A DNA stretch of 57,829 bases, taken from IMG/VR virus record IMGVR_UViG_3300001683_000002, positions 1 through 57,829 of that record. One strand, 5' to 3'. Source of the stretch: a virus (Duplodnaviria > Caudoviricetes). Shown in pieces: positions 13,564 to 40,140 of the stretch (position 1 is its first letter; each line of letters opens with the position of its first letter). Both the position numbers and the translations under genes were made by a program. The notes beneath the pieces were generated by a model. The model did no database searches. It had not been told where the DNA came from and saw only the letters and a list, made by a program, of their open reading frames with translations.

Positions 13564-13989
13564 ATGGCAATGTCCAATTTTTCAGAAACGGCAGTACTGG
13601 ATCATATTTTGACCGCTACAGCTTACACGTCGCCTAATGCTACATTGCATCTAGGTCTTCTTGTAGCAGGGTTCTTAGACGGAAGTCCTGCAGCTGGTGA
13701 AGTAGATGCCGTGGCTGACGACACAGCATACGCTAGACAACCCATTTCATTCGGCGCTGCTGTTGCTGGGAACTTACAATCATCAAGTGAGAGCAGTAAC
13801 ACTCAAACATTCCCTGCAGTAGTGCATGGAACTAACGCTGCAGACTACAATGTAACGCACTTTGCTATCTATGACGCATTAGTCGCTGGGAACGTTATTT
13901 ACTGGGCACCTTTATCAGCTTCTATCTTAAGGCAGGTAGGCAAGACTCTTGTCTTTGATACTGGTAATGTCACAGTGGTGCAGAGCTAA
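13564..13989 (+). CDS. Virion structural protein
   Basis: Start moved to ATG 13564 (AAGGGG RBS); MSNFSE..LDH, YARQPISF and THFAIYDA..GN motifs. Confidence 0.65.
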   Translation: MAMSNFSETAVLDHILTATAYTSPNATLHLGLLVAGFLDGSPAAGEVDAVADDTAYARQPISFGAAVAGNLQSSSESSNTQTFPAVVHGTNAADYNVTHFAIYDALVAGNVIYWAPLSASILRQVGKTLVFDTGNVTVVQS

Positions 13990-15134
13990 TGGTTGATCCC
14001 TTCTGGATAAATTTACGGAACGCCAACAGCAACCAAGGAGAAATCCCTTTATCCCCTAACTCTTTATGGGTTACGGGTCAGGGACTGTATGGTCAGATAG
14101 GAGACGGAAGTGCAGCGCCCAGACATTATTTTGATGTTCTGACTGGGTTTGAACCATTCTCGCCTGTACCGGGCTTTCCACTAGAGAGTGATCTTACTAT
14201 AATTGATGGAGCGGGTAACAGTGCGTTCCTGATAAGTAACGGAGTCATATGGGGAACTGGTAGAGACCATAGCGGAAAGCTGGGTATCGGTGGCGGTATA
14301 GGTGTTCATCAAGACGCTTTTGAACCATCAATAACAGCAAACATGGTGTCCGTATCGGGTAGTGCGTCGAGTCAGTCAGTGGCTCTGGATAGCACGGGCT
14401 TAATGTGGGGTGCAGGAGCTACTAATCAGTTAGGTGGTGTAGGCGGCGGTGATTCTTTTGTTCCAATGGGACTTGTTGCAGATAGTGTACACTGTGCGAG
14501 TGCTGGGGTTTTCTATATTCTTAATGGTTCGTTATTTGCGACTAGCTCGTCTAATACTAGCTCAGAGTTTGGATTTGGAGATTTTCTTCCGCATCCTACA
14601 TTCCAGCCGGTACCGGGCATGGTAGGTGTTAAGTCTGTGCAGAGTATAGGAGGAGTGTCATTCGCGATCATGCTAAATGGTGACTTATATGCTGATGGGT
14701 TTTCTTGGCACAACGATGGCAACAATCAAACCCCAGGTTTCACCTTTACAGGGTTGACAAATGTTACTGCTGTCGATAGCTCAGATGACTTCGGCATGGC
14801 AATATCTAATGGAACGCTATACGCGTGGGGAACGAATACAAGCGGACAACTAGGAATGGGTGATAAGGTTAACAGATTCGGTGCGCCAAGCTTTACTAAC
14901 ACTGGTCACACTGGAGTAACCCAGGTTGCCTGCGGGGATCAGCATACGATGATGGTTAAAAATGGACAGCTATACGCTGCTGGTTCAAATTTCCACGGAC
15001 AACTAGGACTGGGTGCGCTTCCGGAATCGATATCGTTTGTTACAACAACCGATACATTCTTAAATGTAATTGACAACGTTGCACAAATTAGTTGCGGACT
15101 GAATACTTCTTACGTTTTAAGAAGCTCGTATTAA
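13989..15134 (+). CDS. RCC1/BLIP-II-type beta-propeller protein, putative receptor-binding
   Basis: Repeated [LIV][WY].[TWA]G.N..GQLG.G units and VACGDQHT / ISCGLNTS. Confidence 0.8.
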   Translation: MVDPFWINLRNANSNQGEIPLSPNSLWVTGQGLYGQIGDGSAAPRHYFDVLTGFEPFSPVPGFPLESDLTIIDGAGNSAFLISNGVIWGTGRDHSGKLGIGGGIGVHQDAFEPSITANMVSVSGSASSQSVALDSTGLMWGAGATNQLGGVGGGDSFVPMGLVADSVHCASAGVFYILNGSLFATSSSNTSSEFGFGDFLPHPTFQPVPGMVGVKSVQSIGGVSFAIMLNGDLYADGFSWHNDGNNQTPGFTFTGLTNVTAVDSSDDFGMAISNGTLYAWGTNTSGQLGMGDKVNRFGAPSFTNTGHTGVTQVACGDQHTMMVKNGQLYAAGSNFHGQLGLGALPESISFVTTTDTFLNVIDNVAQISCGLNTSYVLRSSY

Positions 15135-23599: not shown

Positions 23600-26500
23600 A
23601 TGCCTGAAAATAAGAACCTAAAGAAAACAAGTACAGACGCTGCTGCAATGGGACTCGATCCTTACGCAGCTCTGGATAATGATCCATTAGCGGTCTTAGA
23701 AAACGATCCATATGCAGCGCTAGACGGTGACTTTGGTGTAGAGCCAGCACCATTAGCTTTAGCTCAACCCGAAAGAACGATAGGCGGAACCCTTGGGGAT
23801 ATAGGAGTAACCGGACTAAAGTCAGCTGTAGGATTGGTTGAGGCTGGTATTGGTTTGGCTGACATTCCAACCCTGGGTTATGCTGGAAAAGCCGCAGAGG
23901 CACTAGGTATTAGAACCAAGGATACCCAGGATATATTAGAGAACTTGTATAGTCCTGCTCAGAAGTATGCAGACAAGCAAGTATCTGACGCTAAGGGTTT
24001 TGTGGACACAGTCGGGGCGGGTCTCAGCAATCCATCAACTATACTAAAAGCAGCAGGAGAGTCCGCAGCCTTAATGGGTGGCGGTGGTGTTATTGCGCGT
24101 GGAGTACTTGCGGCAAAAGGTATAACATTGGCTAACGCAACTGCAGGACAACTAGGTCTTGCATCAGCTATAGGTGAGGGTGCTGTCGGAGCAGGTTCAG
24201 CAGCAGAAGGATCAAGACAAGGAACTACAGATGGCTTATTAACTCCTAAGCAGTCAGCTCTAGCGATTGCGACCGGTATAACTACTGGTGCGTTCAACAG
24301 GGTTGGTAGTAAGCTTGCAAACAAATTTGGCTTTGACGATATAGATCAAGTCATAGCTCGTGGTGCCCGAAGCGGAGAAACAACATCAAAGACCATTGGT
24401 CGTAGAATGGCTGAAGGTGGTATATCGGAAGGCTTGTTCGAGGAACTACCACAAAGTGTTGCAGAAACAATCCTTAGCAACGCAGCTATGGATCTTCCAC
24501 TTATGCAAGGTGTCCCGGAAGGTGCTGCTATGGGTCTATTGACCGGTGGTGCAATGGGTATGGCAATCAACGCTAGGCCTACTAGAAAGCCCAACGCTCC
24601 AATAGGCAACGCACTGGATCAAGCGCAACTAGCTCTACCGGCTCCAGGACAGGTTCCTATATTAGCAGGTTATGATAATCAAGATGAAGCACAAGCAGAA
24701 CGAACAGAGGCAGATGGACAAAGACTAGCCCAGCGCTTCTTTAACAAAGCCAATCCCGGAAAGGATGAAGAGATAGATACTACTGACTTTAAAGCGCAAG
24801 CGATAGCAAGTGGTCAATCACAATCAGCGGTCGATAGTTTTCTAGAAGGTCTTGATACACCTATCGAGCCTAACACTACAGGACTACAGGACGGCATTAA
24901 TCCACAGGACGTAATCAGTCAGCAAGAAGAAGGTAAGCTGAAGCAAGCCCAGATGGATTCGGACTTTGAAGGAAGAGAGCAAGATCCTACACAACCTGCT
25001 AAGGACTTTGTTACGTTTGCAAACGAGAAAGGATTATCACGTAAAGAGCGTAAGGCACTACGTAAGTTCATGGCAGACCAACAGATGTCGAGAAGAGCTA
25101 AAGATAACTTCATAGCTAAACTACAGGAAGGAACAGACCAGAACACCCAGGACAATACCCAGGAAGAGAGTATTGTGGACATAGCCCTAAAGGAAGCGAG
25201 CAAGCTCAAACAGAGCGGAGAAGTGGCTAACACTCAACTATCATCAGCACTAACAAAGGCAATCAATGAACCAATCATCAGCGGAAACACTAACAACGAT
25301 ATCAATACTAACGGGTCTAGTGGAAGCACAGAGTCAAGCGTTAACACGGATGGAGTCGGAAATAATCTCGTTACGGGTAGAACTAACGAATCAGAAGTAC
25401 TTGATGGAGCTAGCAATACCGAAGCAGGAGTTGAAGCAACTCATGCCGCCGTACCAAAATTAATTAATCAAACCAGAGAAAACATTAATGAGCAGAAAGA
25501 AACGGAAAGCAAAAAAACGGCAGTTAAAGCGGAATCAGGAGAACAAATAAATGAAATTTACAATAGCTCCATTACACCCACCAATCAGATCAAAGCTACA
25601 GAAGCTGAGATCGAATCAGGGGTCATCGGTCAAAGTCAAGATAGCTCTAAGCCTTTGGAACAAACGGTGGCGAGTCCTGCTGTCAAAAAAGAAGCGATTC
25701 TAACGCAGAAGAAAAACAGATACATTAACAATCAAATTAAAGCTGCTGGTTTAAATAAAAATTCACCTGGGTACGATAATGCTGTCAATACTTTACAAAA
25801 GCAGTATAATAAAGATCTCGAAAAAGCAGAGTTTTCTTTGCCGTTCGAGGAATTTAAAAAGCTACCTGGTAATCGCAAGCAGAGTGATGGGGTTGTACGT
25901 GAGGTCTATGATACTGTTCGTGCGGAACTGGGGATACAAACTAATAAAACACAGGATAATAATGAGCATAGCCCAGAAACCAAAAAAAGTACCACCAACA
26001 CAGCCGCCGTGGGAAACGGAGAACCAACGGCAACTAGAGTACCTGATGGAGCATCAACCACCAATAAAGAAGAAAAAGTAAGTGCGCCTGTAGAAGAAAC
26101 AACGGAAGTTTTAGCTAACACAACAAAGGGCACTAGTACTAGGCTTGATCGCAAGACAAAAAAGGTCTCACCCAAGAAGCGCAATTACTCAGACAGTCGA
26201 GTTGCGAGAGAAAATGATGGAGACACACAATCCTTCAGCAAGGAAGATCCAAGTGCTGATCAGCGAGATGATGTACAAGCAGTATTTACTCCTTCAAAAA
26301 AGTTAACTATGAGCGCAAAGCTAGGCGGTATGACTGCCAGTCCAATGACTGAGCTTAAGCCTACGAATAAATCAGTGCGTAAGTTTCTTGCAGGAATGAA
26401 GAAAGCAAAGGCAGGAAAATTCGGAGCAGCAGTTTTTGTTTATGAGGCTTCAGAATATAAGAAGATGAGAATGTTCTTATCTAGTGATGGTCAGAGTGGG

Positions 26501-29500
26501 TTCGCAGTTAAGCCTGATGGTGATATAGTTAGTGTATTTAATCATGCTGGTGGTGGTAGAGTTAACCCAATGATGGAACTAGCAGTACAGGAAGGCGGAA
26601 CAAAACTTGATGCGTTCGATACAGCACTAGTTGACATGTACGAACTAAGTGGATTCAAGCCAACAAAAATGGATCCTTGGGACGAAGCTTACAAGCCAGC
26701 TGGCTGGAGTAAAGAAACATTTAAAGATTTTAATAACGGAGAACCTGGTGTAGTATACATGGTTCACGAGAAAGACTATAGTCCATCTAATATTTTAGCC
26801 AGTAAAAAGACAAAGGAAACAAGCAATGACAGTACCACAGGAAAAGAACAACAGAGTAGAGACGGAAGCGGACGGAGTTCTAGCCGGGACACTTCGCGTC
26901 TTGAAGGCGCACCAGAGATTAAGGGAGCGTCAGGACAAGATAAAGCAATCGTCGAAGTCGCACAGCAATACGCAAAAGACAACGGAATAGATCTAAAGAG
27001 ACAGTCAGACTATGTCGAGGTGGATTTTGAACTCGCAAAGAGGATAGCCCAGGCATACGAAGATATGGAGCACAAGCCGTCTGATCCTGTTGTTGCTGAA
27101 GCGTACCAGAACCTAATCAAGCAAACTAGAGCCCAGTATGATGCACTAGTTAAAGCTGGATATGAGTTCTACTTTGTTAATGCAGCGGACGCTATCGACT
27201 TCCTGTCTAGTCCTTTTAATGCTATGCGTGAACTACGTCAAGCTAAAAAGCTAGGCGTGTTTCCAACTGTAGATGGATTTGGCGAAGAGAATTCAAAGCT
27301 TGATGTGTCCGACAACCCATTGCTAGCTGACACTGGTATAGTATGGAATGACATCCAGGGCAACAAAAAGAAAGTATTAGCAAATGATCTATTCCGTGCA
27401 GTACATGATGTCTTCGGGCATGGCACAGAGGGGTCAGGATTCCGTGCGCGTGGAGAAGAGAACGCATGGCAGGCACACAGACGCTTATTCACTGGATCCG
27501 CTGTAGCGGCTATCACCTCTGAGACACGAGGACAGAATAGCTGGTTAAATTACGGCATTCACGGAGAAACTAATCAGACTGCTCAGATAGAGGATACAAT
27601 CTTTGCAGATCAGAAGACAGGGTTAATGCCTGAGTTCACATGGACAGAAGGTGTTGCGGGTGACGAAGGTGTGCTTCAGTCTAACAGCGATACAAAGACT
27701 GGATCTACAGTAGAACAAATAGAAGCGCTCATACCTAGACGTACCAAAAAGCTGCTTGATAGCGGTAGGCTAGAGGTCGTGCAGTCTGTAACCGATATTA
27801 GCGATAACTCATATTCATTTACTAGCAATGATGGTCTTGAGGGATTTTATGATCCTAAGACTGATAAGCTATATTTAGTAGCTGACATGCTAGACAAGGA
27901 GAACTTCTCTAGTGTATTGAACCACGAGCTATTCCATAGAGCAAGACGCACAGATAAGAAGCTAAAGAGAAACCTGGCTGAGATAGATAGAAGACTTCAA
28001 GCTAGATTCAACTTAGCAGCGGAAGGCAAAGGTACTGCAGCAGAGCAGGCAGCCTACAAGCGAGTGATGGATGCCAATACTCCAGCTAAAAACCAGCTAG
28101 AGGAATTCCAGGCGTACATGATCACTGACTATAATCAATCACCTAGATCTTTAAGTGCCTCAATGAGACGTTTAATGAAAGATCTGATATCACTGATAAG
28201 GGCATCATTGATTCGTCAAGGAGTGCCTCTAAAGAACATAACAGCTTCCGACTTAAATGCCTTGGCTCAGTACGGCTCAGACAAGCAAACAACCAGCGTT
28301 GCATCAGCAGGTGATACCCTGGTTGGATTAGCCAGCAGAAAAGGATACAAGGGCAATAGCACTAAAGGGGCTAAAGCTTTCCTTACTGGTGATATATACG
28401 GGCGTAAAGCTAGTAATAGTAAGACAGAAGTTTTAGCTAGTACAGCACAGGAAGTGAAGAACGAGAGAGCTAAACGTCTAGAAGAAATAATATTCAGAAA
28501 GACAGGGAAAGATACAGATGATGACATTGACTCAACTCCTCGTCCGGACGATCTTCTAGCTAGTACAGCTGAAATTGCTGCTGAAGCACTTCCTTCTAGT
28601 GGCCTTCACGGAGGCAGGATTATAAAGCAGTGGTCTAAGGATCTCCAGAAGGAGTACCATGACGCAGTGTTTGATGTAATCACCAAGGGTGGAGTGAATG
28701 CAGTATTAAAGCTAGCAGGACTTACTCAAACAAGCACAGTAACAGCACCAAGCTCATACCAGGGTCACGTTGGATCGGTTGAGCAAATCAGTGTTGACGT
28801 TGAAACAACTGTTGACTCCAATGGTATGGAGACCCCAACGCAAGAGTCTAAAGATAAGCTAGAACTAGCGTCAGCAATGCTGGGATACGTCCTTGACCAA
28901 GATGCGGTCGTTGACAGATATCTAGAGCCAGTATCTGCGGGGAGCGACAATATTAACGCTATCAGCTTAAACTATGATAGAGTGCTAACAGGTAATGAAG
29001 TCAAGAACATGATGTCTCATATTGATGTACTGTCTAAAGAGATGGGCTTTGATCCGGAGATGATTGCTATCCCTACCAGTAAGACAGGAGTGGATGTTCT
29101 TAATCTTTCGCCTGATACTATTAGCACTGACATGCTAATTGATATTTCAAGGAGTCTTGCGGCGCAAGTAAACGGAGACTCAAAAACTATATACGCGCAT
29201 AACGCGCTAACGGAGAACGGATATGTCGGGTCAGATAATTTCAGAGAAGGGCAGAGAGCGTATAGCAAGGTCAGAGCGCGGTGGCAGAACCAAAGTAGTG
29301 ACGGAGATAACTCCAGAGCTTCAGGACAGCATGAACCAAAGTGGGACGATAGTACTATTGAGTCGCTCAGAGGAGAAACTAGAAAAGTAACGGAAGAGTT
29401 TCTAGGTAAGCACCACCCGCAAAATAAGAAAACAACTCGTCAGTTTGCTGAACTGATTGACGCCAGGGTAAAGAGCGAGAACGGTACACTTGACGTAAAG

Positions 29501-32500
29501 GATTACTCAGAGAAGGCAATCCAGACAGTTACCAGTAAGCTATTGAGCGAGACTCAAGCTATATTAGAAGGTGGTGATAAAGACGCCATTGGCTGGTATA
29601 CATCAAAGTACAATGATGCTATTAATTTATTGTCAAGACGATTCCCTGAATTTAAGAAGAACGGCGACGCAAGAAACCTGTTCACGGCTATAGTTGCCAT
29701 CACTTCGGACGGAACCTCTGTAAAGGACAATCTGAAATACGCAGTAAAAATATACAAAGAGTACAAGAAGACGGGCAAGCTAGATTCAGTGGGCTTGGGT
29801 GGCGAGAGAGCGGCAAGCTACAAGGCTAACCTCAAACTATTAAGCGGCATAATTGATGAGCATGGTGTTGATGGAATGGTTAACTACCTGACAGAAACCA
29901 TGACCGCTGGTGAGCTTGAAAAAGAATCAGCGTCTATTCTGGGTAAGCCGAAGACGGTTGGCTATCCAAATGAAACAATTGTGCCACGGTCTATGTTATT
30001 CGGAGATAAGCTAGGTGCATTCTTCGCTAACCTTATGGGTCATCCTGATTATCTAACTATGGATAGATGGTGGTCTAGAACCTTCAATCGTCTACGTGGA
30101 CAAATGAGAGCTAACCCAGCTACAGACTCCTCTTGGAAGAGGCTTGCCGAAGCAATAAGGAAAGAGCATCCAGAAGAGAAGCTTGCAAAGTCCCCAAGAA
30201 AAGCCACGCTTCAGAAGCTGGCTACAAAGTACCAGAAGACTTACAAGGCTAGTGGTTTTAAGGATAAGACCGCAACAAATAAAATAGCTAATACTATCAT
30301 GAAAGCTGAGACAGGTCTTAGGGATATACCAGACGGCAAGAGAGGAAGAGCCTTTATGCTTGAGGTTTCGCAGAGAGTCACTGAGGAGTTGAAAAAAGAA
30401 TACCCAGATATGACTGTCGCGGACATGCAAGCGGTGGTGTGGTTTGGGGAAAAGCGACTGTTCAATGAGAACGGCGTCATCTCAACTAAAGCATCTGCTG
30501 AGTCAGACTATAGCGATGCGGCAGCTAACCTTGTCGAGGATGATGCGCCTGTTGATAGAAAGAATATGTCTCACTCTGATGTGCTTAAGCGCGTACCGCA
30601 GCTAACAGAGGCGGCTAAACAGCTGGAGCAGGGTACGATTACCAAGAAAGAATATGCGGAGGTTGTGAAGAAGTATAAGCCTATATTCAAGATTGATGAG
30701 CTACCTGACTCAGCAACCAATGAGCAGATGACTCAAGCCTTAACAAAGGACAAAGTTGAACGTATAGGTATGCCAGTTAAGACCGGCGAGAGAGTTGGAT
30801 TACGATTAGATATACCCGCTTATAAAGAGTCAGGCGTGTGGATTCCAGCTACTCATGTGGCGGGTAGCGGTAATTCATTTAATCCTACAGCTAGAATAAC
30901 TGATGTAAAATTCCTAGATACCAAGAAGGCTGCACTTAACGTAGCAACTGGTGCAAAAAGTAAATCGCCATTTGCTACAATTAAAGGCTCTTATGTTCAA
31001 GGCACTACGGAAGAGAATAGAGCTTTAGCTAAAGAGGCGATGAATAGTCCTGAGTGGATCCAGGTGGGCTTTGACCCTGAGCGTCACAGTTACTTCTACG
31101 ATAGAACTCCTGATGCTAATGGTCATCATAATCCTGTAGCGGCTGCAGATGAAGCGATACAGATCGGGCAGTTAGTGTTAGCCAAGAACCCAGTTTACGC
31201 TAACGAAGATGAAGTATTATTTAGCCGAAAAGCAGTAACCAAAGAAGCTCATGCAGTAGCACAGAATAACGCAACTCTACCTAAGAGCCAGGGAGGCTTA
31301 GGCTTGCCTGCGAATAACACAGCTAAAGACAGAGCTAGGGCTATGGGGTTTGATGTTGATACAGTTTGGTACAGAGGGGTTACGGGTGATTTAGCTGAAG
31401 CTAACGGCTCGTTGCAGGGGCGCGATACTTATAATGGACAGAGGGGTGGACTACAATTCTTCTCCGAAAACCCGGACATGGCAAGTACATTTGCCAACAC
31501 TGATGCAGGGCGCGTTTACCCTGTATATTTGAAACTCAGCGATGTAAAGCAGTTTCCAGTGGGGAAGGAAGGGCGCTTTAGTAAGACAGGTTTTGATGAT
31601 GCCGCGTTAAAGCTAGACGAAGGTCAGGCATTAATGGCGCGTAAAGTTATTGATAGCGGCGCTTATGTTGACAAGACCCTTGACCCTAACAGCCTATGGA
31701 GTTACAACGCTGATCAAGTCGCTATAAGAGGAGATAAAAACATACGCTCAATACACGCAGCTTTCGATCCTATGCTTGCGGATGAGCCTACTCTTCTTTA
31801 TTCTATAAAATCCACAGCACAGAAGAACGCGGCTCTACCTAAGAGCAAGGGAGGCTTAGGCTTGCCTGAGGGTAACACAGCTAAAGACAGAGCTAGGGCT
31901 ATGGGGTTTGATGTTGATACCACTTATTATCGCGGGACGACGGAGGCATGGTCAGAAGATGGTGATCTGACTGGCGTTTACTACACCTCTGATCCTGAAT
32001 ATGCGTCAAGCTATTCGGACGGAGAGGAAGGCCAGATGGTCATTCCCGTTTTCCTAAACACAGAACATTTCAAAATTGAGACTGATATAAATGATGTTAC
32101 TGACTGGAACTTCAACCAAGATGAGCTGGCAGCTCAGGGCTATACCGGAGTAATGCACGAAACGGATGACGTAGCTTTCATATTTTCAGATAAATACAGA
32201 CGGAACACGCCGAAAGCCAGCTCAAACATTCGCTCAATACACGCAGCTTTCGATCCTATGCTTGCTGATGATAGTAACCTTCTAGCTAGCACAATAGAGA
32301 AACGTAAGCCAGTAAAGAGAAAGCCAGTATCAAAAAGAAAGAAAGCCCCTAGCAAGATTAAAGGGACTAATGCTACATGGCGCGATAGACCAGGCTTTGA
32401 AGGTGTTACTGAGGCAGGCTTTGCAGCACTAGGAAAGATAGGCGCTCCATTGACTGGGAATTTTGTAGAAAAAACTAAAGCAGCGGTTAAGGACGCATCA

Positions 32501-34912
32501 ACTTTATGGCGTAGAAAAGTAAGACAATACGGTGTCGATCAGTTCGACTCGTTTAAAAACATCTTAGGAGATAAAGAGTCATGGATGATGGCTCATATAA
32601 GCGGCACAGGATCTAGCGTGGTCGAAGCACTTACGGAATTCGGTAGACCATTACTGGATTGGTCTGGTGCTGTCAAGGTTGACATGAAGAAGAAAAGCCT
32701 AGCACAGATCTTTGAGCCACTAGGCACAGAGACAGATAGGTTCTTGATGTGGGTAGCGGGTAATAGAGCGGAAGGTCTGAAGGTTGATGACAAAGAGCAT
32801 CTATTTAACCACGCTGAAATAGCAGAGCTTAAGCGCTTGTCTGATGGCACGAAGGATGGCAAGAGTCGCTTAGCACTATATAAGGAAGTGCTTGTAGAGT
32901 TTGAAGCTATGCATAATGCTGTAGTTCAAATCGGTGTTGATACAGGACTAGTTAGTAAAGAAGACGCCAAGATCTGGAAGGATCAGGGTTTCTACGTTCC
33001 ATTTTACCGCATAGCTGAAGAGTCAAGCGATCACCAGGGTAAAGGTGTTCCGTCAGCGAGTGGACTTCAAGGACAAGAAGCGTACAAAAAACTCAAGGGT
33101 GCTGATATGCAGCTTGATGATTTACTAGTTAATACCATGATGAATTGGACGCACTTAATCGGAGCATCACTAAAGAATCAGGCTGCTAGTAAAGCGTTAG
33201 TACAGGCTGTGAAGCTTGGGATAGCTACACCAGTAAAGGAGTCAGAGCGAGGCGAGAAGGCTATCTTCGTTCGTGTAAATGGCCAGAAGCAGTACTATGA
33301 TATTGTTGATACTACAGAAGGTAGATTAGTCCTTGACTCTCTAACATCTCTGAACTTTGACGGTCTGAATGGTACGCTAATGAAAGTAATGCGTAAGTTT
33401 AAACGTGCCTTAACTATTGGTGTAACAGCGTCCCCTGAATTTAAGGTCGCTAACCTACTACGAGATACGCTTCAAGCAATAGCGGTAGCTGACATGAGTA
33501 CCAATATAGGTAGGAACCTTGTAGAGGGATACAAGGCGACATCTAAAGACAATCCGATTATAGCCCAGATGATTGCTGGTGGTGGCGCGTTCGGTGACTC
33601 CGGGTATATTTCTGGTGGCGATCCAGATGCTATCAAAGCTAGTCTGAAAAAGGGAATACCTAGCTCGTCTATACTTAATACAGATAGTAAGATAAAGAAA
33701 ATGTGGGATGCATATCAGGACGTAGGCGCTAGAGCGGAGAACATTAACCGTGCAGCTAACTTTAAGCAAGCACTAGAAAAAGGAAAGAGTTTACTAGAAG
33801 CTAACTTTGAAGCTCGTGATCACCTAGACTTCACTAGATCAGGTTCAGCTGTTTCAGTGAGAGCTATATCTCAAATGGTTCCGTTCTTAAACGCAAGGCT
33901 ACAGGGTCTTGATAAACTTAGTCGTGCTGCTATGGATCCGGAGCAGAAGGGACAGTTTGCAGCGGTCGTCGGTATGTATTCGCTAGCATCAGTGCTTCTA
34001 TACTTAGCTATGCGTGGAGACGAAGACTATGAAGAAGCTGAAGACTGGGAGCGTGATACGTACCATCTGTTTAAGCTTCCTGGTAGTGACATCATGTACA
34101 GATTCCCAAGGCCTTTTGAAGTTGGAGCTATAGGTAGTATGGCTGAACGATTCGTGGAGCAGCTAGTTGATGATAAAGTTCATGGTGAGTTATTTGCGGA
34201 AAGACTAATGCATACAATTTTTCAGACATTCGCAATGAACCCTACACCTCAGTTGTTCAAGCCTCTCGTTGAGACCTGGGCTAACAAGAGTTGGTTTACT
34301 GGACGTGGCATAGAGTCCCAGTCAATGGAGCGCTTATCTAAAGTGAACCGTAAGAAGGCCTGGACGTCACAGACAGCTATAGGTTTGAGTACCGCTATGG
34401 ATGCAATTTTATGGGATGACGTAGTACTTAGTCCTGTTCAGATAGATCACCTTGTGAAGGGCTACCTGGGCTGGTTAGGAGCAACTACTCTAGCTGGTAT
34501 CGATACGCTCGCAAGACCTGCGTTAGGCGTTGCTGAGGCTCCAGACATGGAGATACAAGATCTAGCAGTGGTAGGAAGGTTTGCCAGAGAGGGTAAGGCT
34601 CGAAACTCAAAATTCATTAGCCAGTTTTATGAGAACCAACGTGACCTTAATCAAAAGTTTGCAGACATTAAGCACTACAGAGATAACCAGGAGTATAAGA
34701 AGGCAGCGGCGGCACTTCAGCTTCACGGTAACGAGCTTCGGAACCGCAAAGCTTTCAATCGTGTTGGTAAGCGATTATCAGATATAAACAAAAAAATTAG
34801 ACTGATAACAGCAAGCAAGAGAATGTCGGGTGCTGCAAAGAGAGTTGCGATTAATCGCCTTAATAGGCAGCGCATCTTAATAACTAAGAGAGCTGCCAGG
34901 CTTCTTGAGTAA
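23600..34912 (+). CDS. 3770-aa polyvalent (DarB-like/LPD38-type) internal virion protein
   Basis: G/A-rich N-terminus; GNAT-like segment (~26360-26790); HDVFGH domain; HELFH zincin motif (~27922); HhH-glycosylase-like segment (~29500-30530); two ART-like domains (31259-32280); C-terminal PFLNA.LQG, PRPFEVG and SP.QIDHL..GY.G motifs of LPD38 type. Confidence 0.8.
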   Translation: MPENKNLKKTSTDAAAMGLDPYAALDNDPLAVLENDPYAALDGDFGVEPAPLALAQPERTIGGTLGDIGVTGLKSAVGLVEAGIGLADIPTLGYAGKAAEALGIRTKDTQDILENLYSPAQKYADKQVSDAKGFVDTVGAGLSNPSTILKAAGESAALMGGGGVIARGVLAAKGITLANATAGQLGLASAIGEGAVGAGSAAEGSRQGTTDGLLTPKQSALAIATGITTGAFNRVGSKLANKFGFDDIDQVIARGARSGETTSKTIGRRMAEGGISEGLFEELPQSVAETILSNAAMDLPLMQGVPEGAAMGLLTGGAMGMAINARPTRKPNAPIGNALDQAQLALPAPGQVPILAGYDNQDEAQAERTEADGQRLAQRFFNKANPGKDEEIDTTDFKAQAIASGQSQSAVDSFLEGLDTPIEPNTTGLQDGINPQDVISQQEEGKLKQAQMDSDFEGREQDPTQPAKDFVTFANEKGLSRKERKALRKFMADQQMSRRAKDNFIAKLQEGTDQNTQDNTQEESIVDIALKEASKLKQSGEVANTQLSSALTKAINEPIISGNTNNDINTNGSSGSTESSVNTDGVGNNLVTGRTNESEVLDGASNTEAGVEATHAAVPKLINQTRENINEQKETESKKTAVKAESGEQINEIYNSSITPTNQIKATEAEIESGVIGQSQDSSKPLEQTVASPAVKKEAILTQKKNRYINNQIKAAGLNKNSPGYDNAVNTLQKQYNKDLEKAEFSLPFEEFKKLPGNRKQSDGVVREVYDTVRAELGIQTNKTQDNNEHSPETKKSTTNTAAVGNGEPTATRVPDGASTTNKEEKVSAPVEETTEVLANTTKGTSTRLDRKTKKVSPKKRNYSDSRVARENDGDTQSFSKEDPSADQRDDVQAVFTPSKKLTMSAKLGGMTASPMTELKPTNKSVRKFLAGMKKAKAGKFGAAVFVYEASEYKKMRMFLSSDGQSGFAVKPDGDIVSVFNHAGGGRVNPMMELAVQEGGTKLDAFDTALVDMYELSGFKPTKMDPWDEAYKPAGWSKETFKDFNNGEPGVVYMVHEKDYSPSNILASKKTKETSNDSTTGKEQQSRDGSGRSSSRDTSRLEGAPEIKGASGQDKAIVEVAQQYAKDNGIDLKRQSDYVEVDFELAKRIAQAYEDMEHKPSDPVVAEAYQNLIKQTRAQYDALVKAGYEFYFVNAADAIDFLSSPFNAMRELRQAKKLGVFPTVDGFGEENSKLDVSDNPLLADTGIVWNDIQGNKKKVLANDLFRAVHDVFGHGTEGSGFRARGEENAWQAHRRLFTGSAVAAITSETRGQNSWLNYGIHGETNQTAQIEDTIFADQKTGLMPEFTWTEGVAGDEGVLQSNSDTKTGSTVEQIEALIPRRTKKLLDSGRLEVVQSVTDISDNSYSFTSNDGLEGFYDPKTDKLYLVADMLDKENFSSVLNHELFHRARRTDKKLKRNLAEIDRRLQARFNLAAEGKGTAAEQAAYKRVMDANTPAKNQLEEFQAYMITDYNQSPRSLSASMRRLMKDLISLIRASLIRQGVPLKNITASDLNALAQYGSDKQTTSVASAGDTLVGLASRKGYKGNSTKGAKAFLTGDIYGRKASNSKTEVLASTAQEVKNERAKRLEEIIFRKTGKDTDDDIDSTPRPDDLLASTAEIAAEALPSSGLHGGRIIKQWSKDLQKEYHDAVFDVITKGGVNAVLKLAGLTQTSTVTAPSSYQGHVGSVEQISVDVETTVDSNGMETPTQESKDKLELASAMLGYVLDQDAVVDRYLEPVSAGSDNINAISLNYDRVLTGNEVKNMMSHIDVLSKEMGFDPEMIAIPTSKTGVDVLNLSPDTISTDMLIDISRSLAAQVNGDSKTIYAHNALTENGYVGSDNFREGQRAYSKVRARWQNQSSDGDNSRASGQHEPKWDDSTIESLRGETRKVTEEFLGKHHPQNKKTTRQFAELIDARVKSENGTLDVKDYSEKAIQTVTSKLLSETQAILEGGDKDAIGWYTSKYNDAINLLSRRFPEFKKNGDARNLFTAIVAITSDGTSVKDNLKYAVKIYKEYKKTGKLDSVGLGGERAASYKANLKLLSGIIDEHGVDGMVNYLTETMTAGELEKESASILGKPKTVGYPNETIVPRSMLFGDKLGAFFANLMGHPDYLTMDRWWSRTFNRLRGQMRANPATDSSWKRLAEAIRKEHPEEKLAKSPRKATLQKLATKYQKTYKASGFKDKTATNKIANTIMKAETGLRDIPDGKRGRAFMLEVSQRVTEELKKEYPDMTVADMQAVVWFGEKRLFNENGVISTKASAESDYSDAAANLVEDDAPVDRKNMSHSDVLKRVPQLTEAAKQLEQGTITKKEYAEVVKKYKPIFKIDELPDSATNEQMTQALTKDKVERIGMPVKTGERVGLRLDIPAYKESGVWIPATHVAGSGNSFNPTARITDVKFLDTKKAALNVATGAKSKSPFATIKGSYVQGTTEENRALAKEAMNSPEWIQVGFDPERHSYFYDRTPDANGHHNPVAAADEAIQIGQLVLAKNPVYANEDEVLFSRKAVTKEAHAVAQNNATLPKSQGGLGLPANNTAKDRARAMGFDVDTVWYRGVTGDLAEANGSLQGRDTYNGQRGGLQFFSENPDMASTFANTDAGRVYPVYLKLSDVKQFPVGKEGRFSKTGFDDAALKLDEGQALMARKVIDSGAYVDKTLDPNSLWSYNADQVAIRGDKNIRSIHAAFDPMLADEPTLLYSIKSTAQKNAALPKSKGGLGLPEGNTAKDRARAMGFDVDTTYYRGTTEAWSEDGDLTGVYYTSDPEYASSYSDGEEGQMVIPVFLNTEHFKIETDINDVTDWNFNQDELAAQGYTGVMHETDDVAFIFSDKYRRNTPKASSNIRSIHAAFDPMLADDSNLLASTIEKRKPVKRKPVSKRKKAPSKIKGTNATWRDRPGFEGVTEAGFAALGKIGAPLTGNFVEKTKAAVKDASTLWRRKVRQYGVDQFDSFKNILGDKESWMMAHISGTGSSVVEALTEFGRPLLDWSGAVKVDMKKKSLAQIFEPLGTETDRFLMWVAGNRAEGLKVDDKEHLFNHAEIAELKRLSDGTKDGKSRLALYKEVLVEFEAMHNAVVQIGVDTGLVSKEDAKIWKDQGFYVPFYRIAEESSDHQGKGVPSASGLQGQEAYKKLKGADMQLDDLLVNTMMNWTHLIGASLKNQAASKALVQAVKLGIATPVKESERGEKAIFVRVNGQKQYYDIVDTTEGRLVLDSLTSLNFDGLNGTLMKVMRKFKRALTIGVTASPEFKVANLLRDTLQAIAVADMSTNIGRNLVEGYKATSKDNPIIAQMIAGGGAFGDSGYISGGDPDAIKASLKKGIPSSSILNTDSKIKKMWDAYQDVGARAENINRAANFKQALEKGKSLLEANFEARDHLDFTRSGSAVSVRAISQMVPFLNARLQGLDKLSRAAMDPEQKGQFAAVVGMYSLASVLLYLAMRGDEDYEEAEDWERDTYHLFKLPGSDIMYRFPRPFEVGAIGSMAERFVEQLVDDKVHGELFAERLMHTIFQTFAMNPTPQLFKPLVETWANKSWFTGRGIESQSMERLSKVNRKKAWTSQTAIGLSTAMDAILWDDVVLSPVQIDHLVKGYLGWLGATTLAGIDTLARPALGVAEAPDMEIQDLAVVGRFAREGKARNSKFISQFYENQRDLNQKFADIKHYRDNQEYKKAAAALQLHGNELRNRKAFNRVGKRLSDINKKIRLITASKRMSGAAKRVAINRLNRQRILITKRAARLLE
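31259..31362 (+). repeat. Left flank of ART-like cassette 1; near-identical to 31817-31920
   Basis: 104-nt repeat containing an exact 48-nt match (31315-31362 = 31873-31920). Confidence 0.92.
31745..31779 (+). repeat. Right flank of ART-like cassette 1; identical to 32231-32265
   Basis: CGCTCAATACACGCAGCTTTCGATCCTATGCTTGC, exact 35-nt match. Confidence 0.92.
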
Positions 34913-37094: not shown

Positions 37095-37790
37095 TTATAA
37101 GTCCAGCTCCTCCTTAGCCATCAAGTATTGCCTTACAAACTCAGACCTAACACAATCATTAGGTGTGAACTCAATTATATTAAAGTGACTAGACATCTTA
37201 TCAAACACCCTGATTATATCATGTAACCCGGACTGACTAGCTCTTAGGTCGTTTTGCTTATAGTCCCCAGCAATGATCAGCTTAGAGTCTAGTCCTGTCC
37301 TTGTCACAAGAGTGTCTATCTCATGAAATGTTGCTGACTGTGCTTCATCGAAGAACACAATAGCATTGTCGAAAGTAAGCCCCCGTAGGTATGATGTGTT
37401 AACAAAATGGATCTGCCCCTGTGCCTTCATCTTGTCGTAGTTTGAGGCGTACACCTCATGATCAGAGAAAGATAGTGGCTCAGTAATACTATTGATAATC
37501 TCTGAATAGGGAGACTCATATACAGCCATCTTCTCTTCCAGCGATCCTTTTAAGAAACCAACGTCACGAGTTGGTACGGATGATCTTACAATAACCAACT
37601 GATCAAACCCTGACCCTTGAGTCACAATCTGTTCGACAGCTAGTCTTAACGCGGTAAATGTCTTCCCTGTTCCTGATGATCCAATTAAGATCTGATGCTT
37701 CGCTAAAAAAGTATCAGCGATAACTTGTTGCTTCTCATTCAGTGCCTCGAATGGTGCGCGTAAAACCACATTCTTTAGTTTTTTAGACAT
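37095..37790 (-). CDS. phoH: PhoH-like ATPase
   Basis: GSSGTGKT Walker A, R..VPTRDVGFLKG, YLRGLTF, DEAQ, GDYKQND, D.VRS; likely start MSKKLK at 37790. Confidence 0.92.
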   Translation of the reverse strand: MSKKLKNVVLRAPFEALNEKQQVIADTFLAKHQILIGSSGTGKTFTALRLAVEQIVTQGSGFDQLVIVRSSVPTRDVGFLKGSLEEKMAVYESPYSEIINSITEPLSFSDHEVYASNYDKMKAQGQIHFVNTSYLRGLTFDNAIVFFDEAQSATFHEIDTLVTRTGLDSKLIIAGDYKQNDLRASQSGLHDIIRVFDKMSSHFNIIEFTPNDCVRSEFVRQYLMAKEELDL

Positions 37791-37875
37791 TTCAGTTCCT
37801 GTAGTTATTGCTCCTAGACTATGGGAGCGAGGAATGCAGTGGACAGAATCGTTACTGCTCACCGCTGTTTTTTAT

Positions 37876-38700: not shown

Positions 38701-38894
38701 TTGTCTGTCCCCGTTGCTGCGACTGATAAGTCCCTCCTTAGCAAGTATAAAGATCCCTCAACAACTACATAACCCTGGTGCCAATTCACGACAGCCTGGT
38801 GACTTACACCTAAGAATTCAGCCAGGCCTCTTCTGCTACCGAACTCGCGTTCAGCGTATTCATCTACTGTTTCTACTTCTTTAGATACACTCAT
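38697..38894 (-). CDS. Cro-like HTH protein
   Basis: FGSRRGLAEFLGVSHQAVVNW. Confidence 0.7.
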   Translation of the reverse strand: MSVSKEVETVDEYAEREFGSRRGLAEFLGVSHQAVVNWHQGYVVVEGSLYLLRRDLSVAATGTDK

Positions 38895-39592
38895 GATCTT
38901 TCCCCTGTTACGTTAATGATACGTTCATATATTTCTCTAGTCTTATTCACATCATCCTCACAATACTCAGATATTTTATCGTATTCACCCAGCTCAAAAG
39001 CTCTAGCTACATGTGACCCATCAAACTCGCCTTTAGCCGGTAAGCCAAGAGCGTTACAAATATTATCCAATGATCCACCTGACCTGGACTGAAACCCATT
39101 CCATGCTCTCATTGTGTCGTAAACTTGTCGTGATCCGTGGCGCTGGTTAATAGGTACCTCTACTCCTTGTGTATCCACTCCTAATATTACACATCGCTTA
39201 AACAGAAACGGTAGATCAAAGTCGATAAGGTTGTGTCCGACCCAGCGAACAGATGATGACCTAGCTACATCGATATTATGAAACTCATACTCGCCCAGCA
39301 ATCTCAAGAAGAAACAATTCAAAAGCATTTTTTCGGTTGAGTACTGACCTACAGGGTTGAGCTGCATAGATCTAGCAGGCTGACTATCTATAGAGTAACC
39401 TATAGTGCAGATAGTCCCAGCTGACCCGTCGAAACTTGTAGCATTCACCATGTTGGATCTAGCAGTTAAGCGCCATTTGTCTAGTGCCTCCTTTGATTTG
39501 TAGTTAGCCGGTGGCTTTAAATTCTTATCGAGATAGTCTAACCGATCTACGTCCTTACACGGAAGAGTCTCTAAGTCAATTGTTATTCTCAT
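38891..39592 (-). CDS. DEDDy 3'-5' exonuclease (PolB-exo-like)
   Basis: IDLET, VGHNLIDFDLPFL, YDTM, SLD.IC..LG, YCEDDV. Confidence 0.85.
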   Translation of the reverse strand: MRITIDLETLPCKDVDRLDYLDKNLKPPANYKSKEALDKWRLTARSNMVNATSFDGSAGTICTIGYSIDSQPARSMQLNPVGQYSTEKMLLNCFFLRLLGEYEFHNIDVARSSSVRWVGHNLIDFDLPFLFKRCVILGVDTQGVEVPINQRHGSRQVYDTMRAWNGFQSRSGGSLDNICNALGLPAKGEFDGSHVARAFELGEYDKISEYCEDDVNKTREIYERIINVTGERS

Positions 39593-40140
39593 TCATTTAC
39601 CTTCTTAGCTTTATCCAAAAGTTCACGCGCTACAGCCTTATCAGAAGAGTTAAGTAACTTCCATATTTTAGACTGCGAGTCTCGTGACTGCTCATTCCAT
39701 AGTACACTGAACTCGATATCATCCTTACGTATCAGTTCAACCATCTCTTCAACAGCATCTTCTATCGCTTCGCCTTCCGCTTCCGGGGCACCTTCACCTG
39801 AATACAAGTACAAGCCCAGTCCGAAGACTGCAATACATTTAACTAGACAACGCATCCTGGCATCACTTATATCTCTAGATGTAGGGTCAGCAATTGACTT
39901 CATCTTATGATCCATGACAGGTAGTATCATCGCCCTAGTGACGCCACACACTGTAACGTGAACTTCAACCTCACACGACCCATTAGAATAGAGTACTGTC
40001 TCGCAAAAAGTATACCCGCTATCTGGATATACTTTCTGGAGTTCAGCCCAAGCATGGTGCCACGGTAAATAAGTAAGACCCATTTTCTCTTTAGTATACT
40101 TAGATACATTTATAGCACTTAATTTTTTAAAAACACTCAT
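39589..40140 (-). CDS. sak: Sak/Rad52-like single-strand annealing protein (DUF1071-like)
   Basis: K.GLTYL.W..AW, LPVMD, RCLVK.IA.FGLGLYLY.GE. Confidence 0.85.
   Translation of the reverse strand: MSVFKKLSAINVSKYTKEKMGLTYLPWHHAWAELQKVYPDSGYTFCETVLYSNGSCEVEVHVTVCGVTRAMILPVMDHKMKSIADPTSRDISDARMRCLVKCIAVFGLGLYLYSGEGAPEAEGEAIEDAVEEMVELIRKDDIEFSVLWNEQSRDSQSKIWKLLNSSDKAVARELLDKAKKVNE

Follow-up and report, generated by a model that had tools for sequence, protein, structure and literature searches.

ADP-ribosyltransferases (ARTs) are presented by Iyer et al. 2017 (PMC5512222), in the sections of that paper considered here, as the most common protein-modifying domain of phage polyvalent proteins, in which they occur in one to twelve copies and possess an H-Y-D active site. 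Polymorphic toxin systems are mentioned in the same sections as an analogy; conserved flanks, homogenisation at the DNA level and core replacement at the flanks are not described there. In the literature, no description was found of border segments as crossover points, of all-or-none core replacement or of concerted evolution of the borders in modules of the ART-PolyVal family (PF18760), with the proviso that supplements and the FTP (file transfer protocol) alignments of Iyer et al. may show flank motifs. Already known are the module family itself and its occurrence in multiple copies. The subject of this work is a pair of tandem ART-PolyVal-like modules within a giant open reading frame (ORF) of the virus record IMGVR_UViG_3300001683_000002. 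The whole stretch of 57,829 bp, which is a complete virus record with direct terminal repeats, is referred to as the window. The giant ORF (23600-34912, + strand) codes for 3770 amino acids, and each of the two modules consists of an ART-like core that is enclosed by flanks nearly identical to those of the other module. It is likely, with a probability of about 0.7, that gene conversion between the two modules keeps the DNA of their flanks alike, and that the same segments are the points at which cores cross over throughout the family.

In polymorphic toxins such as Rhs and CdiA, the toxin tip is variable and preceded by a conserved motif, and cassettes kept in store can enter the main gene by recombination. 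In MARTX toxins, arrays of effector domains are reshuffled by recombination between strains, the borders of the effectors being the processing sites of the toxins' own protease. Concerted evolution is a further relevant phenomenon. Here, gene conversion keeps paralogous segments identical at synonymous sites while their neighbours are saturated, and the conversion tracts end at heterology.

Module 1 (31259-31816, + strand, 186 amino acids) is directly followed by module 2 (31817-32302, + strand, 162 amino acids). A hidden Markov model (HMM) built from 25 modules matched them at residues 2554-2739 and 2740-2901 of the giant protein with scores of 146.8 and 140.6, respectively, and both contain a left flank, an ART-like core and a right flank. 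The left flank of module 1 (AQNNATLPKSQGGLGLPANNTAKDRARAMGFDVDT, 31259-31362) has its partner at 31817-31920 in module 2. In the codon alignment, 97 of the 104 nucleotides are identical, leaving seven differences, and there is an exact run of 48 nucleotides (31315-31362 and 31873-31920), a 47-nucleotide part of which was found exactly at both 31316-31362 and 31874-31920. The right flanks (NIRSIHAAFDPMLAD...LL, 31738-31797 in module 1, and 32224-32283 in module 2) share a 35-mer which is exact at 31745-31779 and 32231-32265. A repeat search returned these regions as two direct repeats on the + strand, D1 (31258-31385 and 31816-31943, 128 nucleotides, 86% identity, spacing 558) and D2 (31738-31797 and 32224-32283, 60 nucleotides, 88% identity, spacing 486). 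In 100 dinucleotide-preserving shuffles of the window, neither the 35-mer nor the 47-mer was matched a single time. By contrast, core 1 (31363-31737, 375 nucleotides) and core 2 (31921-32223, 303 nucleotides) have no repeat seed in common and are no more alike than expected by chance, since only 97 of 285 aligned nucleotides and 16 of 95 residues agree. Peptide motifs that recur in modules 1 and 2 are WYRG and YYRG, FFSENPDMASTF and YYTSDPEYASSY, and VYPVYL and VIPVFL, respectively. Thus, the repeat search and the codon alignment reproduced all coordinates and numbers that a preliminary description of the window had given for the flanks, including the exact runs of 48 and 35 nucleotides. Its statements that the cores lack obvious DNA identity and that [WY]YRG-type as well as VYPVYL/VIPVFL-type motifs are kept in both modules were confirmed as well. 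The codon alignment also revealed that the identical runs of the flanks abut the cores, while the differences sit at the outer ends, which is the pattern to be expected of a conversion tract stopped by heterology. A profile of the module matched two places in the 57.8-kb genome, both of them within the giant ORF, and no spare cassette was detected.

The flank peptides are not confined to this phage. A search with residues 2540-2905 of the giant protein yielded 36 giant proteins, nearly all of which carry the motifs LPxSxGGLGLPxxNTAxDRAxAMGFD..YHGT and NIRS[VI][NH]AAFDP...S.NLLAS. Since the right-hand motif was always located at the C-terminal end of the match to the module HMM, both motifs belong to the module itself. 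It is made up of a conserved N-terminal segment of about 35 amino acids, a core of ART fold that evolves fast, and a C-terminal segment that is again conserved (NIRSxxAAFDP...LL[AFY]S). All invariant columns in alignments of 11 and 67 sequences fell into the flanks or on YHG. The PF18760 model begins approximately eight positions before YHG, and the left flank for the most part extends beyond the N-terminal end of this model. A tail similar to that of the right flank ([DE]xx[LV]L[FYA]S, 31784-31804 and 32270-32290) also closes an unrelated domain just upstream of module 1 (31205-31225, residues 2536-2542, NEDEVLFSRK) and could be a domain-end or processing mark. A punctuation motif of this kind, [DSNE]xx[LIVM][LM][AFY][SQ], was counted 42 times in 35 giant proteins versus 9.7 expected occurrences (three versus 0.35 in the window protein). 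No claim is made from these counts because the pattern was defined with the data already at hand and because it mostly marks the ends of ART modules.

To judge from these alignments, the flanks would outlast the cores in similarity even if recombination did not take place, and the end segments would always keep some DNA identity. As the flanks are peptides conserved within the whole family, uneven divergence of the proteins is expected, and protein similarity alone is no proof of recombination. The argument of the preliminary description, according to which even divergence is to be expected after a simple duplication, is for this reason insufficient on its own, and it is the comparison of synonymous sites alone that demonstrates recombination.

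For this comparison, the identity of codons was determined wherever the residues of the two copies agree, Met and Trp being excluded. In the flanks, 35 of 39 such codons were identical (left 23/25, right 12/14) versus three of 16 in the cores (Fisher p = 6.9e-7). As a background, modules from different loci were compared in 2925 pairs whose core identity was below 0.3, which gave codon identities of 0.42-0.45 for the flanks and 0.41-0.45 for the cores. Protein constraint alone accordingly leads to about 45% identical codons and not to 90%. Because codon identity in the flanks lies far above this baseline and above the value of the cores, the flanks have been homogenised at the DNA level, as had been suspected in the preliminary description. 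The two flank pairs exchanged DNA recently. This homogenisation was most likely made by gene conversion, which the data suggest more than they do a recent import. A scenario in which the module was duplicated recently and the cores then diverged fast was rejected on account of the codon test, the position of the differences at the outer ends, and the fact that the cores are not nearest relatives: in a check of 145 cores, neither window core was among the 12 best matches of the other.

It is likely that homologous recombination in this phage uses the residual DNA identity of the protein-constrained flanks, and that gene conversion with short tracts is seeded there and stopped at the non-homologous cores. 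Likely drivers would be the phage's own Sak-like annealase and an adjoining exonuclease-like gene. The former, predicted to be a single-strand annealing protein and hence a candidate recombinase, is encoded at 39589-40140 on the - strand (phrog_659, E 3.7e-40; phrog_8492, E 1.8e-36), which agrees with the assignment in the preliminary description. The latter lies at 38891-39592 on the same strand (phrog_403, E 1.2e-14; phrog_25228, annotated as 3'-5' exonuclease, E 1.6e-7). In the wider family, both end segments serve as crossover points for the replacement of whole cores between related phages.

The replacement of cores is seen in other lineages. Over about 1000 residues at the C-terminus, the proteins P0007 and P0009 hardly differ, and their left and right flanks are identical, but nothing aligns between WYHG and PSNIRS, and their cores are unrelated. 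A pattern search derived from the module alignment added 80 viral loci. Between related loci, blastn revealed 88-97% homology over kilobases that stops at +121 to +134 nucleotides of the module and sets in again with the right flank. In example pairs (L007/L043, L043/L017, L020/L041 and L027/L069), the breakpoints lie just after YHGT and at NIRS. For a pair tally, 81 full modules were used. Two modules from different loci were regarded as sharing a backbone if the 300 nucleotides next to the module were at least 80% identical, and a core was scored as replaced if the blastn coverage did not exceed 15%. Forty of the 68 backbone-sharing pairs had the same core and 28 a replaced one, while intermediates did not occur. 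Two to four core types were present in five of the 12 backbone groups. Hence, core replacement between conserved segments is recurrent and all-or-none in this module family. The idea of swappable cassettes put forward in the preliminary description thus holds in other lineages, in which cores have been swapped between conserved flanks, but an exchange of cores was not seen in the phage studied here. More tentatively, the flanks may be a built-in exchange socket, in which an invariant structural or catalytic frame is at the same time a homology handle of approximately 35-100 nucleotides. Sak-type annealases would insert whichever ART core a co-infecting relative supplies into the polyvalent protein that is ejected, and the handles of the copies would be matched by gene conversion. 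We regard this extended scenario as possible but rather doubtful.

Natural variants of the phage provide further insight. In the protein cluster, there are five other full-length versions of the giant protein, all of 3770 amino acids and with one to four substitutions each. Seven positions are variable among the full-length versions, two of which lie within the 35-amino-acid left flank of module 1. At 31267 (+ strand), a T/G polymorphism causes the substitution N2556K, G being the state of the module 2 flank. Three of the five other full-length versions have K at this position, and G was found in contigs of the metagenomic runs X2 (depth 9.4 of 27.9) and X4 (18.8 of 42.2, three contigs). Near-identical copies of the 2-kb stretch 30800-32800 exist in 20 public runs of 14 studies dated 2016-2025, whose source labels are sediment, marine sediment and hydrothermal-vent metagenomes. 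The phage is thus widespread in sediment and vent habitats. Populations were compared by means of contigs of four runs from four studies, not of raw reads. Both cores were present in all four runs, and the contigs tile flank, core and flank like the window. In X4 and X6, one contig each emerges from unique upstream sequence, shows the states of module 1 as far as 31310, followed by nine letters in the module 2 state, with GAG GGT replacing GCG AAT. The nearest module 1-specific letter (31289) and the letters in the module 2 state lie within 31 nucleotides. Given that the metagenome contigs were built from 31-letter words, which we take to be the case here, this mixture must exist in the reads. 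The mixed flank states and N2556K suggest that the two copies still undergo gene conversion with each other.

Some contigs were left out of this evaluation. In X7, one contig skips 486 nucleotides (from 31744 to 32231, across the 35-mer) and would delete the core of module 2; it is ambiguous and was not counted. A contig of X4 (31243-31304) has four differing letters that could not be placed and was not used. Moreover, X6 contains a diverged relative with 17 differences in 225 nucleotides (30961-31185). The match of its contigs to the window ends precisely at the boundary between the modules (31815/31816), and what precedes the module 2 flank is similar to the sequence upstream of module 1; this relative may thus have another arrangement of modules.

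Regarding the nature of the cores, PF18760 was matched by module 1 with 24.0 bits (E 7.4e-5), by module 2 with 22.1 bits (E 2.7e-4) and by the giant protein as a whole with 30.8 bits, compared to a curated cut-off of 31.2 bits. Sixty of 67 aligned relatives matched this family at E <= 0.001. Through these intermediates and the module HMM, homology of both modules to ART-PolyVal appears clear at the sequence level. The structure predicted for module 2 (predicted local distance difference test score, pLDDT, 82.7) matched almost only ART-fold proteins. Foldseek gave domain III of exotoxin A as the top match (E 0.05), and according to their titles, 28 of the 44 rows listed by VIA-align belong to ADP-ribosylating toxins or to domains of PARPs or tankyrases, with a Z of 5.4 and a root mean square deviation of 3.5 Å over 101 residues for the best one. 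The model of module 1 is of low confidence (pLDDT 61.7); its top matches, an RES toxin, ParT and tankyrases (E >= 0.02), are supportive only. Thus, both cores were modelled as an ART fold with modest scores, and this fold is likely for both of them. The ART-PolyVal-like character that the preliminary description had ascribed to the modules is borne out by the relatives, the module HMM and the fold matches. A sequence search against solved structures with the module profile retrieved nothing below E 0.3. Among the ART-fold rows, the model of module 2 also matched a pre-ejectosome chain of cyanophage A4 (9k3a_B, residues 950-1600, Z 5.2). A term search of the corresponding structure paper (PMC12002296) found neither ADP-ribosyl nor ribosyltransferase.

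The active-site His of the family (YHG) is replaced by Arg in both modules (YRG). According to the codon alignment, Arg2592 of module 1 is encoded by AGA (31373-31375, + strand) and Arg2778 of module 2 by a different codon, CGC (31931-31933, + strand). In 142 unique modules, this residue is H in 130, R in eight and another one in four cases. The strand-2 motif, the place of the Tyr of the H-Y-D site, is FFS in module 1 and YYT in module 2. By sequence, both modules are R-variants homologous to ART-PolyVal and not canonical members of the family. They may be active, injected enzymes. YRG variants are found elsewhere (L085:4031, L011:4001 and L013:2762, as well as P0024 at 4186, P0013 at 1658 and P0021 at 781), and L011, L085, P0024, P0013 and P0021 possess a further module-like stretch in the same protein or locus as the YRG module.

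Besides gene conversion, the likeness of the flanks might be explained by a recent tandem duplication of the whole module and subsequent import of a foreign core by a double crossover within the flanks, which would be alike because they are young. This scenario, the main alternative, would amount to a genuine cassette swap within the genome of this phage and uses the same recombination points as gene conversion between the modules. It is in line with the frequent core replacement in other lineages with breakpoints in the same segments, and with the finding that the cores of the window are as distant from each other as from the cores of unrelated phages. However, two events with crossovers exactly at the core edges are needed, the imported core would carry the rare Arg (8/142 unique modules) by coincidence, and the mixed flank variants together with the change of N2556K toward the state of the paralogue point to continuing exchange. 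We consider this course of events rather unlikely.

Purifying selection on the flank peptides alone, which means an old duplication with constrained ends and no recombination, would fit the conservation of the flank motifs across very distant polyvalent proteins. It would also fit the left flank of P0005, which is identical over 38 amino acids to that of P0009, a protein to which P0005 is otherwise unrelated. Selection on proteins does not fix synonymous sites, though, and 35 of 39 identical flank codons compared to a baseline of about 0.45 and to 3/16 in the cores make this explanation very improbable. It is even harder to believe that two strains were collapsed or joined into a chimera during assembly and that the flanks are identical for this reason. 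In each of the four runs, the short-read contigs are interrupted at the flanks, which shows that these repeats pose problems to assemblers, but the same structure of 3770 amino acids is present in six separate contigs (four of 57,790-57,876 nucleotides, the window with 57,829 nucleotides and one of 20,011 nucleotides). Furthermore, contigs from four studies join unique core sequence to each flank, and contigs of X2 bridge the junction between modules 1 and 2 without differences. An assembly collapse, which the preliminary description had named as an objection, is therefore contradicted by the six full-length versions and the contigs of four studies.

There are also observations that weigh against gene conversion between ART modules and core exchange at their flanks. 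At the three further loci that contain two full modules, flank codons are identical at an ordinary rate (L011 16/30, L082 6/13 and L085 6/14), and the flank protein identity is within the top 5% of the background for only three of five multi-module proteins, of which the window protein is the most extreme (0.83). The same two cores are present in all six full-length versions, and a relative of this phage with another core, copy number or flank set was not found. The preliminary description had proposed to search viromes with the flanks, but the exact 47- and 35-nucleotide strings had no matches among other viral contigs (the phage's own record was possibly left out), and degenerate peptide patterns were used instead. 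In phage records, blastn revealed no close relative and tblastn one record with 28.7% identity; metagenome contigs yielded two distant loci with 34-37%. The variants were read from contigs and not from raw reads, and contig data do not give variant frequencies. The apparent deletion in X7 may be an artefact of the assembly graph since the shared repeat of 35 nucleotides exceeds the 31-letter words of the contigs in length and the depth of this run is low. With respect to the ART assignment, both modules remain under the curated PF18760 cut-off of 31.2 bits, the fold matches are weak (Z <= 5.4, Foldseek E >= 0.02), and the active-site His of strand 1 is absent in both modules, Arg being present instead.

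How does the locus compare to the described systems? With ART-PolyVal, as treated in the considered sections of PMC5512222, it has in common a giant multidomain phage protein with LPD38, multiple module copies and a putative ART-like fold. It differs by scores under the cut-off, by Arg instead of His and by a left flank that is mostly outside the Pfam model. The resemblance to polymorphic toxins is that the conserved border of a hypervariable effector is the point of recombination and that replacement is all-or-none, as shown by the 28 of 68 backbone-sharing pairs with a replaced core, none with a partly replaced one, and the breakpoints at YHGT and NIRS. On the other hand, the variable part is internal here and has a border on either side, and it is carried by a phage protein of virion type instead of a toxin secreted by bacteria. 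Neither orphan cassettes nor immunity genes of the polymorphic-toxin type were seen, the module profile matching only the giant ORF in this genome. This resemblance is to be read as an analogy in the mode of working, not as membership. MARTX toxins may be compared in having a giant carrier and a central modular array of effectors whose content differs between close relatives. However, the proteins are unrelated, the delivery system is another one, and borders formed by protease sites are a feature of MARTX. The flanks share with concerted evolution the identity at synonymous sites beside saturated sequence and tracts that end at heterology. What is different here is that the tracts are very short (about 100 and 35-60 nucleotides) and coincide with the crossover points of module exchange in related phages.

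The giant ORF is the last gene of a block on the + strand which contains head, connector, tail-fibre and virion structural genes. Near its C-terminus, the product has an LPD38 domain (PF18857; residues 3474-3658, 34019-34573, + strand; Pfam E 3.9e-33). A very large phage protein with several unrelated domains including an LPD domain is what characterizes polyvalent proteins, and with 3770 amino acids, LPD38 and two ART-like modules the ORF is by its predicted domains a phage polyvalent-type protein. Related giant proteins likewise combine PF18760 with LPD families. The gene context and the pre-ejectosome chain among the fold matches of module 2 suggest that the protein is probably carried in the virion and ejected. 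An HExxH motif (NHELFHRARR, 27923-27937, residue 1442) may represent a zincin-like metallopeptidase typical of polyvalent proteins; Pfam gave no match at this site at E <= 0.1. Other genes observed in the window are an RCC1-like repeat protein gene inside the structural block (13989-15134, + strand; phrog_7220, E 9.3e-29) and a PhoH-like gene (37095-37862, - strand; phrog_170, E 1.7e-71).

Polyvalent proteins are regarded as the weapons that a phage injects first, and the diversification of their domains has so far been described in general terms. For their most common enzymatic module, a concrete rule can now be given, namely an all-or-none exchange of cores between two short conserved segments, and these border segments can be kept identical within one gene through gene conversion. 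The rule explains why close phage relatives differ in this single stretch. If the flanks were indeed a built-in exchange socket, they would constitute a recombination-based diversity system for injected anti-host effectors, similar to polymorphic toxins in its working but located inside a virion protein. The change from His to Arg in both modules raises the question whether they have a different chemistry or belong to an inactive subgroup. The flanks are search handles with which the core repertoire in viromes can be catalogued, and they mark natural junctions for experimental swaps of cores toward host targets.

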